Positions 4,831 through 36,921 of a stretch of 64,000 nucleotides of DNA are shown here, piece after piece (the first letter of the stretch is position 1; every line of letters begins with the position of its first letter). Source of the DNA: Candidatus Binataceae bacterium (lineage in GTDB: Bacteria; Desulfobacterota; Binatia; Binatales; Binataceae); the NCBI GenBank assembly GCA_036495685.1, contig DASXMJ010000191.1, positions 64,203 through 128,202 of the forward strand. Direction: 5' to 3'. A program made the translations under genes and the position numbers. The notes beneath the pieces are model-generated. The model was not told the DNA's origin. It did no database searches and worked only from the letters and a program-made list of their open reading frames with translations.

Positions 4831-5930
4831 TCCAGCGCCCTCCGCGCCCCCTCGCGTACGTCGTCGGGAAGGTTGATTTCGTAGCGAAGATTGCGGAGCG
4901 AATCGAGGGTGCCGTCGAGAGTGATCATCTTCATGAAGCGGCATAGTTTGCACGCCTTGTAGAAGTGCTTTTCGGGTATCTCCATGAGCAGGCGATCGGA
5001 CAGGCCACATTCGGTAACCACCAAAAATTTGTCGGCCTCGCTGGTACGCGCATAGTTGACCATGGCGCTGGTCGAGAGCACCGCGTCGGCCAGCGCGAGC
5101 ACGTCCTTGCGGCACTCCGGATGGGCTATCACCTTGATGCCTGGGATCGAGGTCTTGACCTTGTTTACTTCCGCCGGCGTTATCTGATGGTGGACGTAGC
5201 AGTTACCATCCCATGAAATTATTCGTTTGCGGGTGTTCTCCTGTACATAGTTAGCCAGATTCTGATCGGGGACGAACAGCACGTTTTCGGAGTCGATGGC
5301 GTTGACCACCTTGACTGCGTTGGCCGAGGTGCAGCAGGCATCGCAAAGCGCCTTGACGTCGGCGGTGCAGTTCACGTACGCCACGACCTTGAGGTCGGGA
5401 TAGATTTGCTTCAGTTCCGCCTTGCGTTCGGCCAGGGCTTCTGCAGTGACCGCATCCGCCAGCGAACATCCCGCTCTCAGGTCGGGAATCAGCACGGTGC
5501 GCCCGGGATTCACGACCTTGGCGGTCTCGGCCATGAAATAGACTCCGCAGAACACGATCACGTCGGCGTCGCGGACCTCTTTGGCCTTGCGGGCCAACTC
5601 CAGCGAATCGCCGACAAAATCCGCGACCTCAAAGATTTCCGGCCGCTGATAGTTGTGCGCAAGCACGATGGCCTTGCGCTCCTCCTTGAGGCGCAGAATC
5701 TCGGCGATCTGCTCGGCGTACCGCTCGCAAGCCTCGAGCCCGTAGCCACTCTGGTCAAGCGGCGCGAGCTTGTCATGAAGCGCGCGCGCCGAAATAGGGG
5801 AGTGTGTGGGTGCGTTCAATGGCAAATCCTTGTGTGCCCCGGATTCCAACGCCTCCGCAGATTCCACCGCCGACCGGGTACTTTGCGTCAATTTGACACT
5901 TACTCTAGTCAGCCGCGCTCCGGCACGCAA
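4806..5930 (-). CDS. nadA: Quinolinate synthase NadA.
   Basis: Conserved AIVLAHNYQ motif and the three Cys-containing segments typical of NadA. The 5930 start is TTG. The true start is probably further downstream (GTG at 5870 or a TTG near 5825), by alignment to E. coli-type NadA N-termini. Confidence 0.85.
   Translation of the reverse strand: MRAGARLTRVSVKLTQSTRSAVESAEALESGAHKDLPLNAPTHSPISARALHDKLAPLDQSGYGLEACERYAEQIAEILRLKEERKAIVLAHNYQRPEIFEVADFVGDSLELARKAKEVRDADVIVFCGVYFMAETAKVVNPGRTVLIPDLRAGCSLADAVTAEALAERKAELKQIYPDLKVVAYVNCTADVKALCDACCTSANAVKVVNAIDSENVLFVPDQNLANYVQENTRKRIISWDGNCYVHHQITPAEVNKVKTSIPGIKVIAHPECRKDVLALADAVLSTSAMVNYARTSEADKFLVVTECGLSDRLLMEIPEKHFYKACKLCRFMKMITLDGTLDSLRNLRYEINLPDDVREGARRALERMLELSA
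5885..5899. promoter_or_regulatory. Palindrome GCGTCAAtTTGACAC (5-1-5 perfect core GTCAA-t-TTGAC) in the nadA 5' region. Candidate NrtR operator.
   Basis: Seen directly in the sequence. Lies within the first about 45 nt of the maximal nadA ORF, but upstream of the more likely internal starts. NrtR is encoded immediately downstream of nadA. Confidence 0.3.
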
Positions 5931-6073
5931 CCGGCGTCGGCCGTTCAGCCTTACGCAAAGCGAGCCGGGCGCGTCTTCTCACCAAGGAACGCAATTGGCG
6001 CTGTGTCCCGAGCCTCTGCTAAACCGAAGCACGGACCCGAGGGTTGGCATGGCACTCGGGCGGAGTTAAACCG

Positions 6074-7222
6074 ATGGATGAAGTTCTGGACAAGCAGGTA
6101 ATCGAGGCGGTGCGCCGGTTTGTGGAACGCGACGTCATGCCGGTGGCAAGCGAACTGGAGCATCGCGATGAGTACCCGCAGGAGCTGGTCGACAAAATGA
6201 AGGGGTTGGGTCTTTTTGGCGCCACCATCCCGGCCGCCCATGGTGGCCTCGGCCTTTCATTCAGCACCTACGCACGAGTCATGGAGGAGCTCTCGCGCGG
6301 ATGGATGAGCCTGGCGGGCGTGATCAACAGCCATCTGATCATGGCCTACATGATTGTCCATCACGGCACCGAGGCGCAGAAGCAATACTTTTTACCGGCG
6401 ATGGCTTCCGGCGAGAAGCGGGGCGGGCTGGCTTTGACGGAGCCGCACGCCGGCAGCGACGTGCAATCGATCCGCAGTACCGCGGTCCGTCGGGGCGACG
6501 ACTATTTTCTCTCGGGCAGCAAAATGTTCATTACCAATGCCCGTCACGGAACCATGCTAGCGGTTGCAGCCAAAACCAATCCGAAAGCCGAGCCGGCCTA
6601 TGCCGGAATCAGCATGTTTGCGGTCGAGAAGAACGCAAACGGGCCGACGGTCAGCCGCAACCTCAAGAAGCTCGGCTACAAAGGAATCGATACCTGCGAA
6701 GTTCTGCTCGAGGACTTTGCGGTGCCGGCCACGAGCCTGATCGGCGGCATCGAAGGGCAGGGCTTCAAGCAGGTGATGAGTGCGCTGGAAGTGGGAAGGA
6801 TCAACGTCGCGGCACGCGCGGTCGGAGTCGCGCAGGCCGCCTTTGAAAGCGCAATCCATTACGCGCAGCAGCGGACCGCCTTTGGCAAACCGATCGCGCA
6901 ACATCAGGCCGTGCAGTTGATGCTCGCCGACATGGGCACCCGCCTCGAAGCCGCGCGTCTGTTGGTAATCAGCGCTGCAGGAAAGAAAGATGCGGGCGAA
7001 CGGTGCGACGTCGAGGCCGGAATGGCCAAGCTCTTCGCCTCGGAAGCGTGTGCCAAGATCGCACTCGACGCGATGCGCGTGCTGGCCGGTTACGGCTTCA
7101 CGCAAGAGTTCCCAGTAGAGCGGTTTTACCGGGACGCCCCGCTGATGATGATCGGTGAAGGGACCAACGAAATCCAGTCGCTGGTGATCGCTCGAGGGCT
7201 CCTGGCCCGATATTCAATCTGA
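6074..7222 (+). CDS. Acyl-CoA dehydrogenase.
   Basis: ACAD N-terminal, middle and C-terminal regions (GLALTEPHAGSDV, catalytic region near RVLAGYGFTQEFPVERFYRDAPLMMIGEGTNEI). ATG at 6074 preferred over the TTG at 6044. Confidence 0.85.
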   Translation: MDEVLDKQVIEAVRRFVERDVMPVASELEHRDEYPQELVDKMKGLGLFGATIPAAHGGLGLSFSTYARVMEELSRGWMSLAGVINSHLIMAYMIVHHGTEAQKQYFLPAMASGEKRGGLALTEPHAGSDVQSIRSTAVRRGDDYFLSGSKMFITNARHGTMLAVAAKTNPKAEPAYAGISMFAVEKNANGPTVSRNLKKLGYKGIDTCEVLLEDFAVPATSLIGGIEGQGFKQVMSALEVGRINVAARAVGVAQAAFESAIHYAQQRTAFGKPIAQHQAVQLMLADMGTRLEAARLLVISAAGKKDAGERCDVEAGMAKLFASEACAKIALDAMRVLAGYGFTQEFPVERFYRDAPLMMIGEGTNEIQSLVIARGLLARYSI

Positions 7223-7238
7223 CCAGGAAGTGCGCTGA

Positions 7239-7270
7239 GACCCGCCGGGGCGTAACTCGGAACGCGGGTC
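7239..7270. terminator. Candidate bidirectional stem-loop (GACCCGC ... GCGGGTC) between the convergent acyl-CoA dehydrogenase and MFP genes.
   Basis: 7-bp GC-rich inverted repeat with an 18-nt loop. No clear U-tract. Confidence 0.25.
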
Positions 7271-7285
7271 GCCGGTCAGCCGCCG

Positions 7286-8503
7286 CTACGAGGCTTGCGG
7301 GGTGACCGGCTGTCCATCATGGAGCTGCGCCGGGGGCACTACGATCACGCTTTCGCCCCCGCTCAAGCCCTGCAGGACCTGGACACCGTCCTGGTATTCG
7401 CGCCCCAGCGACACTTCCATCCGGTGCGCGGTGTCCGCACGCACGACCCACACGTACTTCTGGTTGCCCTCCTCGACGACGGCCTTCTGGGGAACCAGGA
7501 CGAGCGCCGGCGCTTCTTCTTTAACTGCGGACCCGCCGAGAAATGAAATCTTGGCACTCATCTCGGGTTTGATAATGGCGAGGTCAGGGGTGAGGATATG
7601 AACCTCGACCTTGACGGTACCTTTCTGGCGGTCCGCTTCCGGATAGATCTTCACGACCCGTGCGTCGAATGAGCGATCCGGATACGCATCGAGGATCACG
7701 CTCGCCGACATCCCCATGGTGACCTTGGCGATGTCGCTCTCGTTGATATCGACCTCCGCGCGCATGTCCTCGGTGTCGGCGATCTGGGCGATGTCGGTGA
7801 CGCCGCCGCCGGCATTCGCACCACTAGCGTAGGTGATCATGTCGCCCACTTCGTGAATCTTGGTCAGCACCAGACCGTTGATCGGTGAGCGAATGACGCA
7901 CTGATCGACCAGGTATTTGTAGAAATCGATCCCGCTCTGGTCTTTTTTGAACGCGGCCTGCGCCTCGTTGAGCTTGTTTTCGGCCATATCGAGCTGGTCA
8001 CGGGTCGCGACGCCGGCCTTGAACAGCTCGCGCTGCCGGTCCGCCTGTGCTGCATACAGTTTGATATCTGCCTCGGCGAGGTCGCGATCGGCCATCGCCT
8101 GTCGCAGCTGTGCCTGATAGTCGCCGTCGTCGATGCGCGCCAGGATGTCACCCTTCTTGATGTGCTGGCCTTCCTCGATCGGCTCGGCAACAATCTGGCC
8201 GAGTTGCTTGGTTCCAACCGTGATGTACTTGTGCTGGGTGACGATATACCCGGAACCGGTCAGCAGGGTTCCTGGCTCTCCCGCCTGTTTGATGGTGACG
8301 AGCGCGGTTTGCACCTCGGGCGGGCGTCCAAGCGTACGCGCGTAGACCTGGTAACCGATCGCGGCGCAACCCGCGATGACCACCAGCGCCACGAGCGCGG
8401 GAACCAGACGGCCAGGGCGCGTCTCGGCCTTGCGCGCGATGCGGAGCGATTCGAGCTCGCGAATGCTTGAAGACGGGCGAGGTGATGACGGTTCAGTGCT
8501 CAT
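7286..8503 (-). CDS. Efflux-pump periplasmic adaptor (HlyD/MFP family) of the MacAB-type ABC efflux system.
   Basis: N-terminal TM anchor, coiled-coil region and beta-barrel/MP domains. The ORF stays open upstream to 9106 in an Arg-rich frame across the permease gene, but the ATG at 8503 (MSTEPSS) follows directly after the permease stop. Confidence 0.8.
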   Translation of the reverse strand: MSTEPSSPRPSSSIRELESLRIARKAETRPGRLVPALVALVVIAGCAAIGYQVYARTLGRPPEVQTALVTIKQAGEPGTLLTGSGYIVTQHKYITVGTKQLGQIVAEPIEEGQHIKKGDILARIDDGDYQAQLRQAMADRDLAEADIKLYAAQADRQRELFKAGVATRDQLDMAENKLNEAQAAFKKDQSGIDFYKYLVDQCVIRSPINGLVLTKIHEVGDMITYASGANAGGGVTDIAQIADTEDMRAEVDINESDIAKVTMGMSASVILDAYPDRSFDARVVKIYPEADRQKGTVKVEVHILTPDLAIIKPEMSAKISFLGGSAVKEEAPALVLVPQKAVVEEGNQKYVWVVRADTAHRMEVSLGREYQDGVQVLQGLSGGESVIVVPPAQLHDGQPVTPQAS

Positions 8504-8508
8504 TGCGC

Positions 8509-9672
8509 TCAACCCTTCCTTAACGCCTCGACAACCTGCATTTTCATAGCTTGGCGCGCGGGAAGCCAGCCGCCCAGTACACCCATTACGGCCGCAAATA
8601 ACAGGGCCTGCAACACCACCGCCGGCGTCACCCGAAACGCGAACGCCATGGTAGAGAAGGTCACGAAATTGCCGAAGCTGGTCGAAAAACCATCGATCGG
8701 TAAGGCCAGGATCACGCCGAGCGCCCCGGCTGCCACCGCGAGCGCCAGCGATTCCAGCATGAACGATCCCAGCACCGCGCCGGGTCTGAATCCCAGCGCG
8801 CGCAGAGTACCAATCTCGGTGGTGCGCGCGGAAACCGCCGCGTACATGGTATTCATGGCCGCAAACACCGCTCCGATCCCCATGATGATCGCGACGATCA
8901 TGCCCAGTGCGCGCAGCTGATTGGCCACCACCGACTGGTCCTTGTAGTAGTCGGTCTCGGTCTGCGCCTGCAGGTTGATGCGCGGATCGTCGGCGATCCT
9001 GCGGATCAGTGCGTCGATCTCGGTGCCCGGCAGCATCTTGAGGCGGGCGCACGCGTAATAGGCACCGCGCTGAGTGTCGTCCTGGACGTTGTGGATGTCG
9101 GCCCACACCTCCGACTCGAACGAGCTTCCCCCCGCGTCGAAAATTCCCACCACCTTCCAGTTGCCGCGCCCAAAGTGCATCGTCGACCCGACGCTGGTAT
9201 TCGCATAGCGTCCGACCAGCGCTTTGCCCACGATTACCTCGTTGAGTGCCGGCTTGAACATGCGACCCTCAATCAGGTGTACGTTTTGATGTACCTGCAG
9301 GGCGACCGGAAGCACCCCGCGTACGACGACGTTGTCGCTGGCCCCACCGGACCGCTGCATGAGCACCTGCACCGGGAGCTCCGGCGAGGCGAGTGGGTTG
9401 CCGTCGGCATCGCGCTTGATCTGGGGAAGAAATTTCAGTGCATCGAATTGATCGAGCTGGACGGCCGAGGAGGTCTCGGTGGTCGAGCCCTTGCGTACCA
9501 CCACCACATTGTCGGGCGATCCGGTATCGCTGATCGCGGATCCCAGGCCGGCCACCATCGCCATCACTATCACGAACACCGCGACCACCAGCGCGATTCC
9601 GCCCGCGGTCATCGCCGTGGATACGCGCCGCACCAGCAGACTCCGGATGTTGTACTTGAGCGGGATCGCCAT
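8509..9672 (-). CDS. ABC transporter permease, FtsX/MacB-like (second of two).
   Basis: Four TM helices with a large periplasmic domain between TM1 and TM2. FtsX-type C-terminal TM bundle. Start MAIPLKYNIRS. Confidence 0.8.
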   Translation of the reverse strand: MAIPLKYNIRSLLVRRVSTAMTAGGIALVVAVFVIVMAMVAGLGSAISDTGSPDNVVVVRKGSTTETSSAVQLDQFDALKFLPQIKRDADGNPLASPELPVQVLMQRSGGASDNVVVRGVLPVALQVHQNVHLIEGRMFKPALNEVIVGKALVGRYANTSVGSTMHFGRGNWKVVGIFDAGGSSFESEVWADIHNVQDDTQRGAYYACARLKMLPGTEIDALIRRIADDPRINLQAQTETDYYKDQSVVANQLRALGMIVAIIMGIGAVFAAMNTMYAAVSARTTEIGTLRALGFRPGAVLGSFMLESLALAVAAGALGVILALPIDGFSTSFGNFVTFSTMAFAFRVTPAVVLQALLFAAVMGVLGGWLPARQAMKMQVVEALRKG

Positions 9673-9674
9673 GG

Positions 9675-10814
9675 TCACGCAACCAGCCTTAAAGCATCGA
9701 CGATGTTCTGCCGCGCGGCGGAGCGTGCCGGGAACCACGCGCTCAGCAGCCCGATGAGACAGGCCGCACCGAGCGCCTCCACGACCACGATGGGAGGCAT
9801 CTGCAGGTTACTGATCCCGATCGCGGGAGAGCCGACCGCGAACACTCGCAGAATGATATACGCGCTCGCGCAACCGAGAATTCCGCCGCTTAAGCCGATA
9901 ATCAGCGACTCGCCTAGCAACAGCCCCAGGATGGTGCCGGAGCGAAAACCGATTGAGCGCATGACTGCGATTTCGCTGCGTCGCTCGCGAATCGACATTG
10001 CAGCGGTATTGGCCGCGACCAGTCCGATCGTGAGGACAACGATGAGGCCGAGAATTTCCGCCAGTTCGAAAAAGGCCCGATAGCCCTGTGTGAACGAGCC
10101 CATGAAGGCCGCTTCGGATTCACTGCGGGTTTCCGCCATGGAATTGGCGAACTGCTCGTCGACGGAGGCGATGATTTGCGGGATATTCTCTGACTTATCC
10201 GCGCGGACCCAAAACATGCTTACAAACCCGGGGCGCCCGGCGGCTTCTTCCAAGTAGTCACGCCGGAACAGGAGAAAATTCGGCGGCGCCTTGTCGTTCA
10301 TCACCCCGACGATGTTGAGCGTTACGTTGAACGGATAGACGGTTCCTCTGAGTTGAATCTGCTGACCGACGTGCAGCCCGAAGCGCTTCATGGTCCCGCC
10401 CGACACCAGGCACGCGGTGCGCAAGCGTTTGAAATCATCGAACGACGCCTTGGAAATTCCCCAGTCGTCCCACATGAGATCGACCTGGTCGGGATCGACT
10501 GCCAAGTTCGGGAATTGGTCATTGACCTCGTGGTAGATTCCGCCAAACCAGCTTTCCGGGACGACCGCGATAACGTGCGGTGTCGCCGCGATGCGCTGCT
10601 TGTAGGCCTCGGGCATCGAGTAGGTGACCCCAGCCTTGTTGTGAACCGCAAGCCGCAACGACGATGCGCGATCGGCGAGAATCTGGCGCGCCAGGGTTGG
10701 GAAACTAACCAGCGCAGAGAAGATGAACAACGACACTGCGATTGAGAATACCGTCAAAAACGTCCGCCGCTTGCTACGCAGCAGATTCTTGAAGACCAGC
10801 ATCGTGAACTTCAT
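9675..10814 (-). CDS. ABC transporter permease, FtsX/MacB-like (first of two).
   Basis: MKFTMLVFKNLLRSKRRTFLTV N-terminus typical of FtsX-like permeases. Periplasmic domain plus C-terminal TM bundle. Confidence 0.8.
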   Translation of the reverse strand: MKFTMLVFKNLLRSKRRTFLTVFSIAVSLFIFSALVSFPTLARQILADRASSLRLAVHNKAGVTYSMPEAYKQRIAATPHVIAVVPESWFGGIYHEVNDQFPNLAVDPDQVDLMWDDWGISKASFDDFKRLRTACLVSGGTMKRFGLHVGQQIQLRGTVYPFNVTLNIVGVMNDKAPPNFLLFRRDYLEEAAGRPGFVSMFWVRADKSENIPQIIASVDEQFANSMAETRSESEAAFMGSFTQGYRAFFELAEILGLIVVLTIGLVAANTAAMSIRERRSEIAVMRSIGFRSGTILGLLLGESLIIGLSGGILGCASAYIILRVFAVGSPAIGISNLQMPPIVVVEALGAACLIGLLSAWFPARSAARQNIVDALRLVA

Positions 10815-30374: not shown

Positions 30375-30407
30375 GATTGACGGCATGATCAATTGCGGAG
30401 CGGGAAG

Positions 30408-32438
30408 ATGAGAGCGCCAGGCTTCGGGTTGCGCACCGACCAACGCGAATACGTGCAGCTCATCTTGTTGTCGGTGATGGTCGGAGTGCTGGGCGCGCTC
30501 GGGAATTTCGGCTTTCGGGCCCTCATAGAATTTTTCACCTGGCTCTTTCAACAGGTCCTATGGACCGCGCTGGGAATTGAGCGGGGCGGTTACTTCCGCC
30601 TGCTGATTCCGCTGGTACTGATGAGCGGCGGGTTTTTGATCATGCTTGTTGACCGGGTGTTCCCGGAGGACGTCCTCGGCTACGGCTTTCCGCAGTTCCT
30701 GGAGCAAATAAATCTCGGCAATCCGCGCATCAAGCGGCGTTGGATGTTCGTCAAGGCGATCGGTGCGTCGCTCTCGCTGGGCTGTGGCGCGTCGGTCGGG
30801 CGCGAAGGCCCCATCGCCCAGATAGGCGGAGCCATCGGGTCCGCGGTTGCGCGGCTGCGCAACCTGAGCCCGGACCGGGTGAAAGTGCTGGTTGCGGCAG
30901 GGGCGGGGGCGGGCATCGCGACTACCTTCAACGCGCCAATCGGCGGGCTTATGTTTGCGCAGGAGATCGTTCTGCTGGGCCACACGGAGCTTGCGAATCT
31001 TACGCTGCTCATCATCGCGACGACCACCGCGGTGGTCGCATCGCACGCGTTTCAGGGCAGCCACAGTGTCTTCGTGGTGCCGCAGTTTCAGCTGCGCAGC
31101 TACTGGGAGATGTTCACGTACGGGATTTTGGGCGTGGTGCTCGGCGTGATGGGCGCCGCCTTCATCCGGTTTTTTCATTTCACCGCGGGCGCATTTCGAA
31201 AGATGCAAGTGCCGGACTGGGCCAAAATCGAATTGGGACTTGCGCTGGTGGGTATTATCGCGATCGGGTGGCCGGACAATCTCTCCGACGGGTACCCGGT
31301 AATCAATCGCGCAATGGCGGGTGAGTTCGGCCTGGCCACGCTCGCCGCGTTGACGGTGACAAAGTTTGTGGGTTCCAGCGTCTCACTCGGCTGCGGAGCG
31401 CCGGGAGGAGTGTTTGGCCCGATTTTTTTCATCGGGACCATGGCGGGCGGGGCGTTTCAACGCCTGTCGGCGATGCTGTTGCCGCACCTGACCGGTCCGC
31501 GCGGTTCGTACTCATTGGTCGGTTTGGGTGCCTTTCTTGCGGCCACCACCCATGCGCCGCTGACCGCGCTGTTCCTGCTTTTCGAGATGACCCAAGGATA
31601 CGACATCGCGCTTCCCGCGATGATCGCGACCGTTACCGCATTGGTAGTCGCGCGCGCGATCGAGGGCGAATCGATCGACACCTACCGGCTTGCCCGCGAA
31701 GGCAAGACCCTACAAATCAGCCAGGAACGATTGGCGTTGACGCAGATTCCGGTAAGCGCGGTGATGACCAAGGAGGTCGCGCTGGTGCGCGAGAACACGG
31801 CTCTGGCCGATCTCCTCCGAGTTGCCGGCGAGACTTCGCAATCGACGCTGCCGGTAGTTAGCAGCGAAGGGGGACTGTCGGGGCTCATCGTGACGCGCGC
31901 CTTGCTCGGTTTGCTTGCCGGCGGGCGGGACTTAGGTCCGTTGGTCAATGCTTACGATATTGCGGAAGCGAATTGTGCCGAGGTTCTGGCTACCGAGAAC
32001 CTGTACTCGGCAAGCCAGATCATGGAACACGAGGGGATCGAGGAACTGCCAGTCGTGGAACGCCGCTACGGCGGGAAGTTTCTCGGTTTGGTGACGCGCC
32101 AGCACATCGTGCAGGCTCTCAATCGCGTCACCGCGTCGGTGGGTTCGATCGCAACGCGTGATGAGCCGATTTATTGGGCGAGCGGATACCGTGTGACTCG
32201 GCTGGAGATTCCGCCGGCGGCGGCCGGAAAGACAATCCGGGAGCTGGATCCACGCGCGCGCTTTTCGGTTACCGTTCTGGCGCTGCGCAGTGTCAAAAAT
32301 CCGGACGCCGGCTTCACTCCAATCACCCCGGACGGAACCTTGAATGCCGGTGATCTGATAATCACCGCCGGCCGTCCCGGCGATATCCGCAAGTTCGAGC
32401 GCGAGCTAGAACAGCCCGCCTCGGTGGCGTCGGGGTGA
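30408..32438 (+). CDS. Voltage-gated ClC chloride channel / H+-Cl- antiporter family protein with C-terminal CBS pair and TrkA-C domain.
   Basis: Selectivity motifs GASVGREGP and GGVFGP. Cytoplasmic CBS pair (ALVRENTALADL, EELPVVERRYGGKFLGLVTRQHI). TrkA-C-like terminal domain. Confidence 0.85.
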   Translation: MRAPGFGLRTDQREYVQLILLSVMVGVLGALGNFGFRALIEFFTWLFQQVLWTALGIERGGYFRLLIPLVLMSGGFLIMLVDRVFPEDVLGYGFPQFLEQINLGNPRIKRRWMFVKAIGASLSLGCGASVGREGPIAQIGGAIGSAVARLRNLSPDRVKVLVAAGAGAGIATTFNAPIGGLMFAQEIVLLGHTELANLTLLIIATTTAVVASHAFQGSHSVFVVPQFQLRSYWEMFTYGILGVVLGVMGAAFIRFFHFTAGAFRKMQVPDWAKIELGLALVGIIAIGWPDNLSDGYPVINRAMAGEFGLATLAALTVTKFVGSSVSLGCGAPGGVFGPIFFIGTMAGGAFQRLSAMLLPHLTGPRGSYSLVGLGAFLAATTHAPLTALFLLFEMTQGYDIALPAMIATVTALVVARAIEGESIDTYRLAREGKTLQISQERLALTQIPVSAVMTKEVALVRENTALADLLRVAGETSQSTLPVVSSEGGLSGLIVTRALLGLLAGGRDLGPLVNAYDIAEANCAEVLATENLYSASQIMEHEGIEELPVVERRYGGKFLGLVTRQHIVQALNRVTASVGSIATRDEPIYWASGYRVTRLEIPPAAAGKTIRELDPRARFSVTVLALRSVKNPDAGFTPITPDGTLNAGDLIITAGRPGDIRKFERELEQPASVASG

Positions 32439-32530: not shown

Positions 32531-33202
32531 TCAGCTTGGGCGCTGGGTGCCGTCACCGGGGAAGATGTACGGCTTCGCCCTGCCGGCGCGAAGTTCCGTG
32601 CACAGTTCCTCCACCGTCGTGACTGGCCGTTCAAGTTCGGTGGCGCAAGTGAGGAACCACTTTCCGCTGGCAAAGTGTGCATCGCTGCCGCCCACCGCCG
32701 TCATTCCGAGCTTGAGGGCGGCATCTGAGGCGCGTTCATTCTCGGCCGGGGAATTCTGGCCGTTGAGCACCTCGATCGCCCCCAGCGCCGCGCCGTGGCG
32801 CGCGAGCAACGCATCGAGACGCACTCCGTAACCGGAATCCCGAAATGGATGGGCGGGAATCGCGATGCCGCCCTGGTGATGGATTACTTCGATCAGGTGG
32901 TCACTTTTGAGCATGCGGCTGGTCAGGTCGAAGCGGCGCATGACTTCGCCGTTGATTCCGAACAGAAGCAGGTGGCCCAAATCGGTGTCGGCTTCGATGC
33001 CCCTGAACACCCGGATTCCGTAGCGCTCCGACAATTCCGCGTAGGCGCGTTCGATCTCGGCTTCGGTTGGATAGCGGCGATGTTCGGTGAAACAAATTGC
33101 GCCGAGGCCGCTCTGATTGCGGGCCGCGAACTCCAGGTATTGCTCCGCCGAGACCTGGGAATCGGCCGACAATTTGGTGTGTACGTGAAGGTCAACGATC
33201 AT
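32531..33202 (-). CDS. PHP-domain metal-dependent phosphoesterase (CpsB/YwqE-like candidate protein phosphatase).
   Basis: MIVDLHVHTKLS His motif, FTEHRRY, internal His/Asp ligands. ATG overlaps the kinase stop (ATGA at 33199-33202). Confidence 0.75.
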   Translation of the reverse strand: MIVDLHVHTKLSADSQVSAEQYLEFAARNQSGLGAICFTEHRRYPTEAEIERAYAELSERYGIRVFRGIEADTDLGHLLLFGINGEVMRRFDLTSRMLKSDHLIEVIHHQGGIAIPAHPFRDSGYGVRLDALLARHGAALGAIEVLNGQNSPAENERASDAALKLGMTAVGGSDAHFASGKWFLTCATELERPVTTVEELCTELRAGRAKPYIFPGDGTQRPS

Positions 33203-34689
33203 GGCTCTGCAAAGGTGTCATGCACCTGGATGTGATCGACAATTGAAACAATTCCCGCGACCCGAAAGGCGAGCCAGCGGATGTTCGCGCGATCGAATTC
33301 CGACGCTACCGTACCCCACACGACGAGGGTGTCGCCATCGAGCCGGAAATTCACCTTCTGGTATCCGTCGGCGTCGAGTTCATGGCGCAGCGCCTCCAGC
33401 CGCTCGCTGGGCGGTACGCTGCTCTCCGGAGCTACATCGGGCGGCGGGGGCACTTCGGGCTCATGGACCATGGTGCGCGCGATGAGGCTGGTGAGAACGA
33501 ACGCGACCGCAAACAGGCCGGCCAGAAGCAGATAGTATAGGGCCGGATTTTGCCTACCCGGGCGACGACGAACGCGTTCCGGTTGCGGGAAATCGCGATG
33601 GCCGGGAAAGTCGCCGAGCGTGACCGTCTCGGCGTCGTTACTCACCTGTTCCGGGCCCAGGACGATAGCCACCGGCGCGGCGCAGAACGAACAGAAGCGC
33701 GAGTCCGAGGGAATCAAGCGGCCACATCGAGGACACGAGATCTCCTCACGAGGAGTGACCAGCACGGTTGGGGCAGTCGACGACGGCGGCGCGGACGGAT
33801 CAGTGTTTGGCGGCGCTCCTAGTCGCGCGTTGCGCCCGCCTTTGCGAGGCGCGGGTTTCGCTGCCGGCGACGCACGGTCGGCGGCGTCACCCGACTGCAC
33901 TGAAAGCAACCGACCCTTGAATGCGACGGCATCGGGGATGCGCAAGACCACATTGTATTGCAACGATTGGTCGACCAGTTCTGCCAGTTCCTGGGTGACG
34001 GCCGGGCACAGCGACCCGAGCGGCGGAAAACTGAAGGGCGGCTCGACGGCGGGATCCCGGCCCGAGAGCGCGTGATGCATGGTTGCGCCGAGCGCGTAGA
34101 GATCGGAGCGGAACTCGGCCTTGCCGCGATACTGCTCGGGAGGTGCGTATCCCTGGGTGCCAATCATGGTGGCGTTGCTCTGGGGCTGGAACAGTCGCGC
34201 GATGCCGAAGTCGATTAGTTTGACCTGCCCGTAGGTAGCCAGCATGACGTTTGAGGGTTTGAGGTCGCGGTAAATGACCGGGGGTTCCAGGTTGTGCAGG
34301 TACTGGAGCGTGTCACAGATTTGCAGGGCTATTTCTACGACCTCCTGCTCGGGCAATTTCCCGCCAGCCTCGTGCAGCTTCTGCTCGAGCGTGATGCCGT
34401 CGATAAATTCCATCACCAGGTAGTGCCGATTCTGCTCGCTGAAGCGATCGAAGACCCGCGGGATATGTTCGTTGGAGAGCTGCGCGAGCATGTCGGCTTC
34501 ACGCTGGAACGCGGCAATGGCCTGCTTCTGCATCTCGGGACTGGTAAAAGAATCCACCATTTCCGCCAGCGCCGAGGGACGCGCGGCCAGCCGCAGATCC
34601 TCGGCGAGATAGACCATTTTCATGCCGCCGCCGCCCAGCGGTTTGACGACGCGATAACGTCCGCCAACTATGGTGTCGGCTGCGATCAT
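33199..34689 (-). CDS. Ser/Thr protein kinase with C-terminal zinc ribbon, TM helix and periplasmic BON domain.
   Basis: Kinase subdomains (VKPLGGGGMKMVYLAED, HRDLKPSNVML, DFGIAR, GTQGYAPPE). Zinc ribbon CPRCGRLIPSDSRFCSFC. TM segment. BON-like C-terminus (VNFRLDGDTLVVWGTVAS...). Confidence 0.85.
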   Translation of the reverse strand: MIAADTIVGGRYRVVKPLGGGGMKMVYLAEDLRLAARPSALAEMVDSFTSPEMQKQAIAAFQREADMLAQLSNEHIPRVFDRFSEQNRHYLVMEFIDGITLEQKLHEAGGKLPEQEVVEIALQICDTLQYLHNLEPPVIYRDLKPSNVMLATYGQVKLIDFGIARLFQPQSNATMIGTQGYAPPEQYRGKAEFRSDLYALGATMHHALSGRDPAVEPPFSFPPLGSLCPAVTQELAELVDQSLQYNVVLRIPDAVAFKGRLLSVQSGDAADRASPAAKPAPRKGGRNARLGAPPNTDPSAPPSSTAPTVLVTPREEISCPRCGRLIPSDSRFCSFCAAPVAIVLGPEQVSNDAETVTLGDFPGHRDFPQPERVRRRPGRQNPALYYLLLAGLFAVAFVLTSLIARTMVHEPEVPPPPDVAPESSVPPSERLEALRHELDADGYQKVNFRLDGDTLVVWGTVASEFDRANIRWLAFRVAGIVSIVDHIQVHDTFAEP

Positions 34690-34696
34690 TGGCTCT

Positions 34697-35098
34697 CTAT
34701 AGTTGCTCTCCAAAAGGCCCCGGCCGCCGGCGCCGATTCCTGCGTCGATTGTGCCTGAGCCGCATGAAGGCATCGTCTTCGAGCGCGCCTTTCAAGGCGG
34801 CGTTCGATGCGCAGATCACGTGGAGCAGAAGTCCGAGCGGGAGGCCGACAGAGTACGCGAACGCAACTCCGAAAAACCACGTCAACCCGCGCGCGGGGCG
34901 TCCCTTATATATGTGCCCCAGGCCGGGAATGATGCTCAACACTGCGGCGAGCACCGGGTTGAACCCCGGATTAAGAGCGAAAAAATGACCGCCTGCCAAT
35001 GGGGCGCCGCAGTCCTTGCAGAACTGCGCCCCGGTAACTACGACCGGCTGGCCGCATCGCCAACAATAGCGGGCTTGCTCGAAATCCGGTTCAGGCAC
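34697..35098 (-). CDS. Small zinc-ribbon + TM2-domain membrane protein.
   Basis: CWRCGQPVVVTGAQFCKDCGAPL followed by the TM2-like motif IIPGLGHIYKGRPARGLTWFFGVAF. GTG start overlaps the FHA-protein stop. Confidence 0.5.
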   Translation of the reverse strand: MPEPDFEQARYCWRCGQPVVVTGAQFCKDCGAPLAGGHFFALNPGFNPVLAAVLSIIPGLGHIYKGRPARGLTWFFGVAFAYSVGLPLGLLLHVICASNAALKGALEDDAFMRLRHNRRRNRRRRPGPFGEQL

Positions 35099-36377
35099 GG
35101 AAGGTAAATGGCGCCTGCCCCAGCCTTATCAAGTCGCCATCGGCGATTGGCCTTTGGGTCACGCGTTCGTCGCTGACGTAAGTTCCGTTCTGGCTTTGCA
35201 GGTCGCGCAATTCAAATCTGCCGTTGATGGATTCGATACTCGCATGATGGCGCGAAACCGACGAATCGTTGATGACAATGTCGTTGTCGGGGGCCCGTCC
35301 CACGCGGATCACGGCACCTGGGCGAAGGGCGAAACGTTGCCCGGAACCATCGACTAGACAGGGGCCGCTTACCCGCGGGGTGGCGGCAACGGTCGAACTC
35401 AAACCCGGCGCGGCACGAGGCATCGGCGCCCGCACCGTGCCCGCTGCCTGACGCAAGCGGAACTTCAGCTCGTAGCCGCCAATCCTAATCTGGTCGCCGT
35501 CGTTGAGGGGCTTGGTTTCGATTCGCTCTCCGTTGACGAAGGTGCCATCCTGCACGGCAAGATTGCGAATCGTATAAGCGGAGTTCTTGAGCTCGATCAC
35601 GGCGTGGCGCGGTTGCACGGCGCTATCGCCGAAGAGACCGATCGGGTTTTCTTCCGCCCTGCCTAAGGTTGCCCGCGCGGCATCGACGCGATATTGCCGG
35701 CCCTTCAAACGTCCCTGCTCGACGGTGATCCACGCGGCTTTGGTGAGTTCCTGGACCAGGCCGATGAACAGGCCGATTGCAAGACCGATGGAACAGAGCC
35801 CGATGAAGCGTGAGGCGAGTCCCTGTGAGCCGATTCCGCTCGCGATGAGATTGCCGAGGGGGTCGAAGAGGAGGCCTCCGACCAAGCCGCCAACCCACCC
35901 GCCGATCGCACCCTTGAGAATGTTTGGTAGTCGCAGCGTCGAGATTCCGACCCCGGCGCCGAGCATCGCGCCCATGATCGCCCAGCTCAGCACGCGAGCA
36001 CAAAAGAGATAGAAGGTCGAACCTTCGTGACTGAGGCTCCAGCCGCCGAAGTTCAGGATCGCGCTGAAGACCCAATTGGCGAAATAGTTGGCCGGAAGTG
36101 CAAGCAACACGCAGATAATGAACCCGCGCGCAAAACGGCGCTGGGTCGCCCCGCTCAAATCGAGGTGCTGGCTTTCCGCAGCCACGATCATGCCGCCGAT
36201 CAGGCCCGAAAGAATCGCCATCGCAGCGTAGGACCAAACCACGCTCCACGCGTTCATTTGCTCGGTCAGCGTGTGTCCGTGGCTGCTGAGTTCGACCGGG
36301 AGCCATCCCAAAGCACCGCCAGCCAGGCCGGCACCCGCCTTAAACAAAAGCTCTCGCTGGTTGATGGAGCCGTTCAT
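35091..36377 (-). CDS. Polytopic membrane protein with two C-terminal FHA domains.
   Basis: About 230 aa N-terminal Gly-rich multi-TM region (GxxxG zippers). FHA 1: TLGRAEENPIGLFGDSAVQPRHAVI...VNGERI. FHA 2: VIRVGRAPDNDIVINDSSVSRHHASI...NGTYV. Confidence 0.8.
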   Translation of the reverse strand: MNGSINQRELLFKAGAGLAGGALGWLPVELSSHGHTLTEQMNAWSVVWSYAAMAILSGLIGGMIVAAESQHLDLSGATQRRFARGFIICVLLALPANYFANWVFSAILNFGGWSLSHEGSTFYLFCARVLSWAIMGAMLGAGVGISTLRLPNILKGAIGGWVGGLVGGLLFDPLGNLIASGIGSQGLASRFIGLCSIGLAIGLFIGLVQELTKAAWITVEQGRLKGRQYRVDAARATLGRAEENPIGLFGDSAVQPRHAVIELKNSAYTIRNLAVQDGTFVNGERIETKPLNDGDQIRIGGYELKFRLRQAAGTVRAPMPRAAPGLSSTVAATPRVSGPCLVDGSGQRFALRPGAVIRVGRAPDNDIVINDSSVSRHHASIESINGRFELRDLQSQNGTYVSDERVTQRPIADGDLIRLGQAPFTFRA

Positions 36378-36921
36378 CGAAAGTGGTCCTCACCCATAAG
36401 CGGCGCGTGCCGCTTCCTCATCATAACCTGCCTCCGATGGCCGGAAAATGCAGCTCTCTACGCTTGGCCCAGCGCCACTTCGGCAATCGAATAGAGGGAA
36501 ACATTTTTGGATTTACTCGGTCCGGTCTTGAAAACCCTCACATTGTGCAGCGATCGGTTCGGAATTCCGCGAGCCATGCCGGTGGGACCTTCGCCAAATG
36601 GTTTGTGTCGCCGCCGAGGTGTGCTTGGGATCTGCGTGGACATGATGCGCCGTTTGACACCTTGCTGAAAAGGGTGCGCTGCGGCGGACCAGTCCAAGCG
36701 AACGTTGCCACGGAGGGACCACAAGTTACTCATTTTTCGAAAAGGAGACCGAAGCATCAGTTCAGCGGACGCAGACCTAAGCCCCGATACTCTGGGGTGG
36801 GAGGACAGACCGCCAAGGCGGGGCCTGCCGATAACTGGAAACGCATGCGGGTGTCGGTTGCCGCGTGGCAGCGATCGGGGCATCATTCCAACGATCCTGT
36901 TGGAAAAGAAAGCCCAGTCGC

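Follow-up and report, generated by a model that had tools for sequence, protein, structure and literature searches.

Operons in which a Hanks-type kinase is encoded together with FHA reader proteins are a known kind of system. In the actinobacterial FhaA/FhaB(FipA)-PstP-PknA/PknB cluster, the membrane kinases are of the Hanks type, bear an extracytoplasmic sensor domain and are encoded beside FHA readers, one of which (FhaB/FipA) is itself anchored in the membrane. The TerY-P triad (Anantharaman et al. 2012, as summarised in PMC10542128) consists of a vWA protein (TerY), a PP2C phosphatase and a Ser/Thr kinase (STK) that often carries a C-terminal zinc ribbon, and the D. radiodurans genes DRA0331-0334 form an operon with the order vWA, Ser/Thr protein kinase, FHA, PP2C (bioRxiv 10.64898/2026.01.23.701218). 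These vWA-FHA-PP2C-STK clusters share the logic that kinase, FHA readers and eraser are encoded together. Here we describe an operon from a Candidatus Binataceae bacterium, located in a stretch of 64,000 nucleotides of contig DASXMJ010000191.1 that was analysed as a whole and that we call the window; its best database matches likewise point to Candidatus Binataceae (phylum Binatota). The operon encodes a protein with six transmembrane (TM) helices and two FHA domains (6TM-FHA-FHA), a small protein with a zinc ribbon (ZnR) and two TM helices (ZnR-2TM), a membrane-anchored STK, and a PHP-family phosphoesterase. A first-pass annotation of the same DNA could not match these genes to any described system, and this judgement is upheld; the closest systems each differ from the operon in composition.

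The resemblance to the actinobacterial cluster is visible in the membrane-anchored FHA reader and in the best NCBIfam matches, FhaB_Rv0019c for the first gene (99.8 bits) and PknB_PASTA_kin for the kinase (189 bits), both of which lie below the respective equivalog cut-offs of 125 and 450. In contrast to that cluster, the Binataceae operon has no PASTA domain, PP2C (PstP), RodA or PbpA, and it carries a 6TM Gly-zipper domain with two FHA domains, a BON sensor and a kinase without the β3 lysine. The C-terminal zinc ribbon of the kinase is shared with the TerY-P kinases as summarised in PMC10542128. Unlike the vWA-FHA-PP2C-STK clusters, however, the operon contains neither vWA nor PP2C and adds the ZnR-2TM protein, and it does not constitute a TerY-P triad. 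What is new here is the composition (6TM-FHA, ZnR-2TM, a BON-bearing kinase and no PP2C) together with an active site that resembles that of WNK kinases.

In order to define the conserved unit, the membrane domain of the first gene was used as a seed for a scan of a genome collection, which returned 80 loci, all from Binataceae; a metagenome scan returned 80 further loci. Loci were scored by tblastn with the four operon proteins and four flanking proteins. Each of the 160 related loci that were fetched has an ortholog of the first gene. Among the loci that could be judged, 72/73 from genomes and 38/40 from metagenomes have the order 6TM-FHA, ZnR, STK. Of 76 loci, 59 retain the 8-nt overlap between the first two genes, and the gap between the ZnR gene and the STK gene has a median of 18 nt. 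We therefore regard the conserved unit as probably a membrane Ser/Thr phospho-signalling triad composed of 6TM-FHA-FHA, ZnR-2TM and STK and specific to Binataceae (phylum Binatota). The genome and metagenome scans, both saturated by Binataceae, reached no triad outside this family. The first-pass annotation had raised the question whether the order of the four genes recurs; it does for the first three and not for the PHP gene, which is absent, with the triad intact, from 12/64 genome loci and 4/32 metagenome loci.

Within the window the operon consists of four co-directional open reading frames (ORFs) on the minus strand, spanning positions 32531-36377, as seen by ORF calling and by reading of the DNA. 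Gene 1 (35091..36377, minus strand; 428 aa) encodes the 6TM Gly-rich membrane domain followed by the domains FHA1 and FHA2, according to ORF calling, Pfam and AlphaFold2. Gene 2 (34697..35098, minus strand; 133 aa) begins with GTG and encodes a zinc ribbon, two TM helices and an Arg-rich tail (ORF calling, Pfam and hydropathy). Gene 3 (33199..34689, minus strand; 496 aa) encodes a Hanks-type Ser/Thr kinase followed by a linker, a zinc ribbon, one TM helix and an extracytoplasmic BON domain, and gene 4 (32531..33202, minus strand; 223 aa) encodes a metal-dependent phosphoesterase with PHP and PHP_C domains (Pfam, NCBIfam and AlphaFold2). Gene 1 and gene 2 overlap by 8 nt, GTGCCTGA, with the GTG start of gene 2 placed over the stop of gene 1. 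A gap of 7 nt lies between gene 2 and gene 3, and GGAGAG is found just 5' of gene 3. Gene 3 is counted here from the ATG at 34689; with the longer ORF that starts at 34773, the overlap with gene 2 would be 77 nt. Gene 3 and gene 4 share an ATGA start/stop overlap. On re-reading the DNA, the four minus-strand genes and all three junctions are as the first-pass annotation had given them, and its general description of an operon for Ser/Thr phospho-signalling, with closely packed genes in one direction and some products anchored in the membrane, is supported.

The two FHA domains that had been assigned to gene 1 are recovered by Pfam (E 2.8e-37), and its description as a polytopic Gly-zipper membrane protein is likewise borne out. 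An AlphaFold2 model built with 73 homologs as input (predicted local distance difference test, pLDDT, 88.6) shows six long TM helices at residues 7-32, 43-72, 78-110, 117-145, 150-179 and 187-211. They make up a membrane domain of aa 1-215 (35733..36377, minus strand) with the motif KGxIGGxxGGxxGGxLFD, whose glycines G156, G159, G160, G163, G164, G167 and G168 are invariant or nearly so, and with invariant R128, W132 and W216. This domain has no match in Pfam or NCBIfam and no relative in the PDB. In the model TM6 runs straight into FHA1 (215-308), and a disordered linker leads to FHA2 (340-427). Column counts over 76 orthologs show that the two FHA domains differ in the loops that contact phosphothreonine (Gly-Arg, Ser-x-x-His and Asn-Gly). 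FHA2 (aa 340-427; 35097..35360, minus strand) is a canonical phosphothreonine reader by sequence, in which G360, R361, S375, R376, H378, N397 and G398 are all invariant. FHA1 (aa 215-308; 35454..35735, minus strand), which is fused directly to TM6, is non-canonical; it keeps the Gly-Arg pair and the His, while Gln255 and Asp277 (variable) stand in place of the phosphate-contacting Ser and Asn. FHA2 alone in gene 1 keeps the phosphothreonine-contact residues. FHA1 also matches the Pfam model Yop-YscD_cpl.

Gene 2 had been annotated as a zinc-ribbon protein with a TM2 domain. The zinc ribbon stands, since Zn_ribbon_3 is matched at 29.9 bits, above the Pfam cut-off, with cysteines C12, C15, C27 and C30. 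The TM2 assignment (PF05154) was rejected, there being no Pfam match to it at E <= 0.1; the sole match of the membrane part is DUF6677 (PF20382), at 27.2 bits against a cut-off of 24.3. Hydropathy indicates two TM helices, and the region is of the DUF6677 type with a PGxGxxY motif. A literature search found nothing on DUF6677.

Gene 3 matches Pkinase (PF00069) with E 3e-35. Its kinase domain (aa 1-270; 33880..34689, minus strand) contains Y140-R141-D142, K144, N147, D160-F161-G162 and the activation-loop threonines T174 and T178, and its best sequence matches in the PDB are PknB/StkP, at 109-122 bits, and PknA. A Gly-rich loop, the D-x-K-x-x-N motif, DFG and APE are all present, as expected of a Hanks-type kinase; the VAIK lysine of strand β3 is not. 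In an HMMER alignment the VAVK lysine of StkP falls on Ala42, within 'SALAEM'. None of the intact orthologs among about 74 from Binataceae departs from the Gly-rich loop GGGGMK, from the β3 Ala (within A[LF]AE[MV]) or from DFG; ALAEM/V is common to all listed orthologs but one, which has AFAEM, and the Ala itself does not vary. YRD is conserved in at least 90%, with one listed ortholog row garbled across this stretch, the αC Glu and APPE in at least 90% of 68 orthologs, and K144 and N147 are at least 90% conserved or invariant (68-74 orthologs).

WNK1 is reported to use K233 in strand β2 instead of the β3 lysine (Min et al. 2004). In a BLASTP alignment of the window kinase to WNK1 (31% identity over 206 aa, 78 bits, E 1e-21), Lys24 in the Gly-rich loop GGGGMK of strand β2 (codon 34618..34620, minus strand) corresponds to K233, and Ala42 (codon 34564..34566, minus strand; placed by HMMER against StkP and by BLASTP against WNK1) to C250. 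The WNK1 kinase-domain query was verified against the WNK1 chains in the PDB (E about 1e-178). The first-pass annotation had not noticed this arrangement of K24 and A42 (34564-34620). The geometry of the catalytic lysine is thus the same as in WNK kinases at the sequence level, with a lysine moved to β2, a residue other than lysine at β3, and a small β3 residue followed by Glu (ALAEM in the window, AWCEL in WNK1). Unlike WNK kinases, the window kinase has DFG rather than the chloride-binding DLG, YRD rather than HRD, and bacterial accessory domains (ZnR, TM and BON at the C-terminus) rather than autoinhibitory/PF2 domains. Because the kinase domain as a whole resembles PknB/StkP more closely than WNK, the WNK-like lysine arrangement is most simply read as a convergent relocation and not as evidence of membership in the WNK family. 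A literature search found no paper on WNK-like bacterial kinases, which is absence of evidence only. The catalytic loop at aa 136-147 reads 'PPVIYRDLKPSN', with YRD replacing HRD; it appears to be identical to a motif of plant RLCK/PBS1-type kinases.

The remaining assignments for gene 3 in the first-pass annotation fared differently at the level of the window protein and at that of the family. The kinase, the zinc ribbon and the TM helix are confirmed, the zinc ribbon (aa 315-340; 33670..33747, minus strand) being predicted to be cytoplasmic and matching Zn_Ribbon_1 (E 4.4e-5) and DUF7575 just below their cut-offs. Its first and last Cys are at least 90% conserved, and the consensus puts the remaining two below this level. 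The single TM helix lies at aa 386-404 (33478..33534, minus strand; hydropathy 2.38 over 19 residues). The extracytoplasmic BON domain, at about aa 430-493 (33211..33402, minus strand), is sub-threshold in the window protein (E 0.048, or 0.0064 for a C-terminal fragment; 17.2 bits against a cut-off of 27). However, 32 of 39 orthologous C-termini match PF04972, with a best E of 3.2e-7, and a profile of the C-termini of the kinase family finds OsmY (E 2e-5) and the BON domain of OmpATb (E 4.8e-5) in the PDB. The BON domain is therefore confirmed only at the family level, by profile comparison. The region also matches the YscD periplasmic model.

The 6TM domain is not confined to this operon. A search of 1.84 billion proteins finds it in 683 representative clusters (50% identity) at E <= 1e-3, and 100 of the 108 long hits continue into an FHA domain. 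Homologs with a single FHA domain are encoded in ubiquitin-like conjugation operons of Armatimonadota and Phycisphaerae, of the form YukD-ThiF-JAB-[6TM-FHA]-[ZnR membrane protein]-Prok-RING-trypsin-UQ_con-DUF2752 (loci L083, 1-7086; L084, 3272-10871; L085, 2439-12440). A ZnR membrane protein directly follows 6TM-FHA once in L084, twice in L085 and not in L083; these ZnR proteins resemble gene 2 only weakly (E 5e-5 with six sequences), mostly through the CxxC knuckles. The ubiquitin-like operons thus contain members of the same 6TM-FHA family, whereas the window operon has no Ubl, E1, E2, RING or JAB gene. Homologs with two FHA domains, at about 30% identity, are found in clusters with the order [6TM-FHA]-[6TM-2xFHA]-vWA-2xFHA-PP2C-STK(TPR) in all four Armatimonadota-type loci (L087, 4555-13626; L088, 4465-12416; L089, 6001-12842; L090, 4670-13401). 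The presence of 6TM-FHA homologs beside PP2C, kinase and vWA genes supports a role of the family in a phosphorylation pathway. The kinases of these clusters have TPR repeats and a normal β3 lysine, unlike the Binataceae kinase. One further homolog that was looked up (P0282) lies in neither a ubiquitin-like nor a vWA/PP2C context.

The Armatimonadota-type vWA/PP2C/kinase clusters are often preceded by a YjeF_N/Carb_kinase gene. Their 6TM-2xFHA alignment also contains a conserved zinc-ribbon-like motif, CPFCG...C.C, in the linker between FHA1 and FHA2; comparison of this linker with the separate gene 2 of Binataceae hints at a relationship by gene fission or fusion. The only divergent clade recovered by the scans (L091-L094, about 40% identity) is without ZnR and STK genes. 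In one of its loci (L091; 1877-2572, minus strand; 5468-7830, plus strand; 9490-10278, plus strand) the 6TM-2xFHA homolog adjoins a TerY_C and zinc-ribbon protein and another FHA protein, and the locus is broken up by two transposases, IS66 and Mutator.

The assignment of gene 4 to the PHP family, whose members have a distorted (βα)7 barrel and a trinuclear metal site of His, Asp and Glu, is secure, with PHP (PF02811, 39.6 bits) and PHP_C (40.4 bits) both above the Pfam cut-off and an AlphaFold2 model of high quality (pLDDT 90.7). In 43 orthologs H6, H8, D14, E40, H41, E70, H77, H118, D174 and H176 are invariant; the invariance of all metal ligands suggests that the enzyme is probably active. 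Within the superfamily, the nearest NCBIfam models are CehA_McbA_metalo (75.4 against a cut-off of 80), RNase RNM and 3',5'-bisphosphate nucleotidase, all matched below cut-off, and the solved structures nearest in sequence are those of RNase AM (9etk, 7ug9). Foldseek comparison of the model with the PDB places TM0559 (2anu) at the top (TM-score 0.69, E 2e-12), followed by RNase AM, PsfC, the pAp phosphatase Cv1693, the PHP domains of Pol III, and EndoQ. The best matches (2anu, 7ug9, 9etk and 2yb1) thus belong to the RNase AM (YciV/TrpH)/TM0559/pAp-phosphatase branch and share with it the full set of metal ligands; gene 4 differs from that branch in its length of only 223 aa, in the absence of the RNase AM insertion domain, and in an identity of only 18-26%. 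A histidinol phosphatase of the HisJ/HisK type was considered and rejected, with TIGR01856 matched at 23.7 bits against a cut-off of 90.2 and HisK structures ranked 34 or lower (TM-score 0.45).

The PHP superfamily also includes the protein phosphatases CpsB and YwqE, and the first-pass annotation had taken gene 4 to be a cognate phosphatase of this type. According to this proposal, the PHP enzyme would be a dedicated phosphothreonine/phosphoserine phosphatase replacing PP2C, and the four genes would make up a complete operon of kinase, reader, adaptor and eraser. The PHP gene indeed follows the kinase on the same strand in 52/64 genome loci and 28/32 metagenome loci, mostly within less than 500 nt, all nine metal ligands are invariant, and a tblastn search with Armatimonadota proteins as queries found no PP2C, vWA or second kinase elsewhere in the 64-kb window, so that the remark that a PHP protein stands where PP2C is usual is correct; homologs of gene 1 in Armatimonadota and other phyla adjoin PP2C and kinase genes. 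However, a protein phosphatase of the CpsB/YwqE type is contradicted both by sequence, with no match to CpsB or YwqE in Pfam, NCBIfam or PDB sequence searches, and by the modelled fold, for which YwqE/CpsB rank 39-41 (TM-score 0.45-0.49, E about 5e-4), and no BY-kinase or capsule gene, of the kind paired with these phosphotyrosine phosphatases, lies near gene 4 in the window neighbourhood. The synteny is also looser than the ATGA overlap would suggest. This overlap occurs in 4 of 60 loci, namely in the closest relatives of the window and in L025 and L031 only, and the distance between kinase and PHP genes ranges from -4 to 3269 nt, with a median of 51. The PHP gene is lost in about 17% of loci that retain the triad, where no replacement phosphatase is found and the downstream genes are opposite-strand acyl-CoA-dehydrogenase-like or luciferase-like ORFs. 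Across the 60 loci with at least 4.5 kb of downstream sequence, PHP and the adjacent ClC chloride channel gene are both present in 48 and both absent in 7, with ClC alone in 3 and PHP alone in 2; upon rearrangement PHP therefore usually leaves with the ClC block (7 of the 9 rearranged cases). No co-occurrence of kinase and PHP was seen outside Binataceae, and a literature search found nothing that combines PHP, FHA and a kinase. The co-conservation of PHP within the family is real and leaves the phosphatase idea a low probability, but the protein falls outside the protein-phosphatase branch, which weakens the idea by the standard that the first-pass annotation had itself set. A dedicated phosphatase is thus unlikely, and PHP is best treated as a peripheral, accessory neighbour of the triad.

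It is about equally improbable that the kinase is a dead pseudokinase scaffold and that the triad serves as a structural complex in the membrane, such as an FHA/BON assembly comparable to SctD/YscD of the type III secretion system. Such a scaffold would be consistent with the Ala at the VAIK lysine position in every ortholog, the change of HRD to YRD, the matches of FHA1 and the BON region to the YscD cytoplasmic and periplasmic models, and the missing phosphothreonine contacts of FHA1. On the other hand, D142, K144, N147, DFG, the αC Glu, the GGGG loop and K24 at the position of WNK1 K233 are invariant or at least 90% conserved, which argues that catalysis, with the lysine relocated, is under selection; FHA2 retains every residue for phosphothreonine binding, implying a phospho-ligand; and there are no secretion-system genes in the window neighbourhood. 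The kinase is therefore more readily seen as active than as decaying, and probably remains so despite the missing β3 lysine, with K24 substituting for it as in WNK. An anti-phage or conflict system related to TerY-P, PD-T4-6 or Stk2-type kinase defence modules seems very unlikely. The kinase matches the PADLOC models PD-T4-6 and mad6, it bears a C-terminal zinc ribbon like the TerY-P kinases in the summary of PMC10542128, and distant 6TM-FHA homologs lie in ubiquitin-like conjugation operons and vWA/PP2C/STK clusters. However, the PADLOC matches are restricted to the generic kinase domain, with no match for gene 1 or gene 2 and a single weak, partial one for PHP, so identity with a defence system was rejected; the operon contains no effector domain (nuclease or toxin), and in about 110 Binataceae loci it occupies a fixed chromosomal position between conserved metabolic flanks, without the mobile-element or hypervariable context of defence islands. 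Hardly credible, finally, is the most far-reaching proposal, in which the kinase would be a bacterial functional counterpart of WNK with an anion pocket left by the displaced lysine, acting with the syntenic, convergent ClC channel as a chloride or osmotic sensor, signalling through 6TM-FHA, and served by the first PHP-type phosphoserine/phosphothreonine phosphatase.

For the membrane phospho-signalling triad that we favour, we infer from the observed gene structure, domains, residue conservation, synteny statistics and fold assignments, and by analogy with PknB/FhaA/FhaB, PpkA/Fha1 and TerY-P, an order of signalling events in which an active kinase responds to a cue, phosphorylates its target and elicits an output from the membrane domain. 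The kinase would sense an envelope or osmotic cue through its extracytoplasmic BON domain and would autophosphorylate on T174/T178, and possibly also on the conserved linker threonines T308 and T355. The envelope-stress or dormancy role put forward in the first-pass annotation would have its sole footing in this BON domain. FHA2 of the 6TM protein may then dock on the phosphothreonine. FHA1, which is fused rigidly to TM6 and is without the contact residues, would relay the binding event to the six-helix Gly-zipper membrane domain, the likely output of the system, which could act as a scaffold or a pore-like element. The ZnR-2TM protein could be an adaptor in the same membrane complex, and the translational coupling of gene 1 and gene 2 suggests that it is a stoichiometric partner. 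The PHP enzyme would be co-transcribed in this genome and accessory, its fold placing it with nucleotide or nucleic-acid phosphoesterases and apart from protein phosphatases.

Several points weigh against this interpretation. Since the 6TM domain has no characterised relative, the output role given to it is a guess, and the kinase could be a pseudokinase, given the absent β3 lysine in its sequence. The flanking genes (luciferase-like, CoA-transferase, ClC and α/β-hydrolase) are syntenic across the family too; the conserved gene order is therefore partly mere vertical inheritance, and adjacency alone is weak evidence for function. Scans for promoter and terminator consensus sequences at the operon yielded nothing exceeding shuffled expectation, and all of the organisms are represented by uncultured metagenome-assembled genomes.

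The operon is bounded by unrelated plus-strand genes, a divergent CoA-transferase gene upstream and, downstream, a convergent gene for a ClC chloride channel with CBS and TrkA_C domains (30393-32438, plus strand). The synteny of ClC with the operon is kept in most Binataceae loci, and PHP tends to go with ClC. The position of a ClC gene beside a WNK-like kinase is an intriguing juxtaposition that is probably a coincidence. The divergent intergenic region (36378-36921) measures about 540 nt here and in the nearest relatives of the window (L003, L004, L147 and L149), as against about 150-250 nt in the majority of the other Binataceae loci. It contains no Rfam match, promoter consensus or convincing ORF, and neither upstream of the operon nor elsewhere in the window did Rfam indicate a regulatory RNA. 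Two contigs labelled Steroidobacteraceae and Candidatus Acidiferrales (L002, GCA_052148795.1, and L012, DASQHV010000567.1) carry the Binataceae-specific synteny STK-PHP-ClC or Lucif-CoAT-FHA-ZnR-STK at 60-80% identity and are probably mis-binned.

No long-standing question is resolved by these findings. The family-wide shift of the lysine to the WNK-type position in a bacterial Hanks kinase provides a test case for the origin and the purpose of that geometry. The 6TM-FHA family, with 683 clusters and no Pfam model, deserves a name; its occurrence in three kinds of systems, namely the Binataceae triad, the vWA/PP2C/kinase clusters and the ubiquitin-like operons, suggests a common membrane phospho-reader module. 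The PHP gene shows how misleading a tidy overlap of start and stop codons in a single genome can be, as it proves to be peripheral in family-wide synteny. Binatota are abundant in soil and peat but uncultured, and a defined signalling unit aids the annotation of their genomes.

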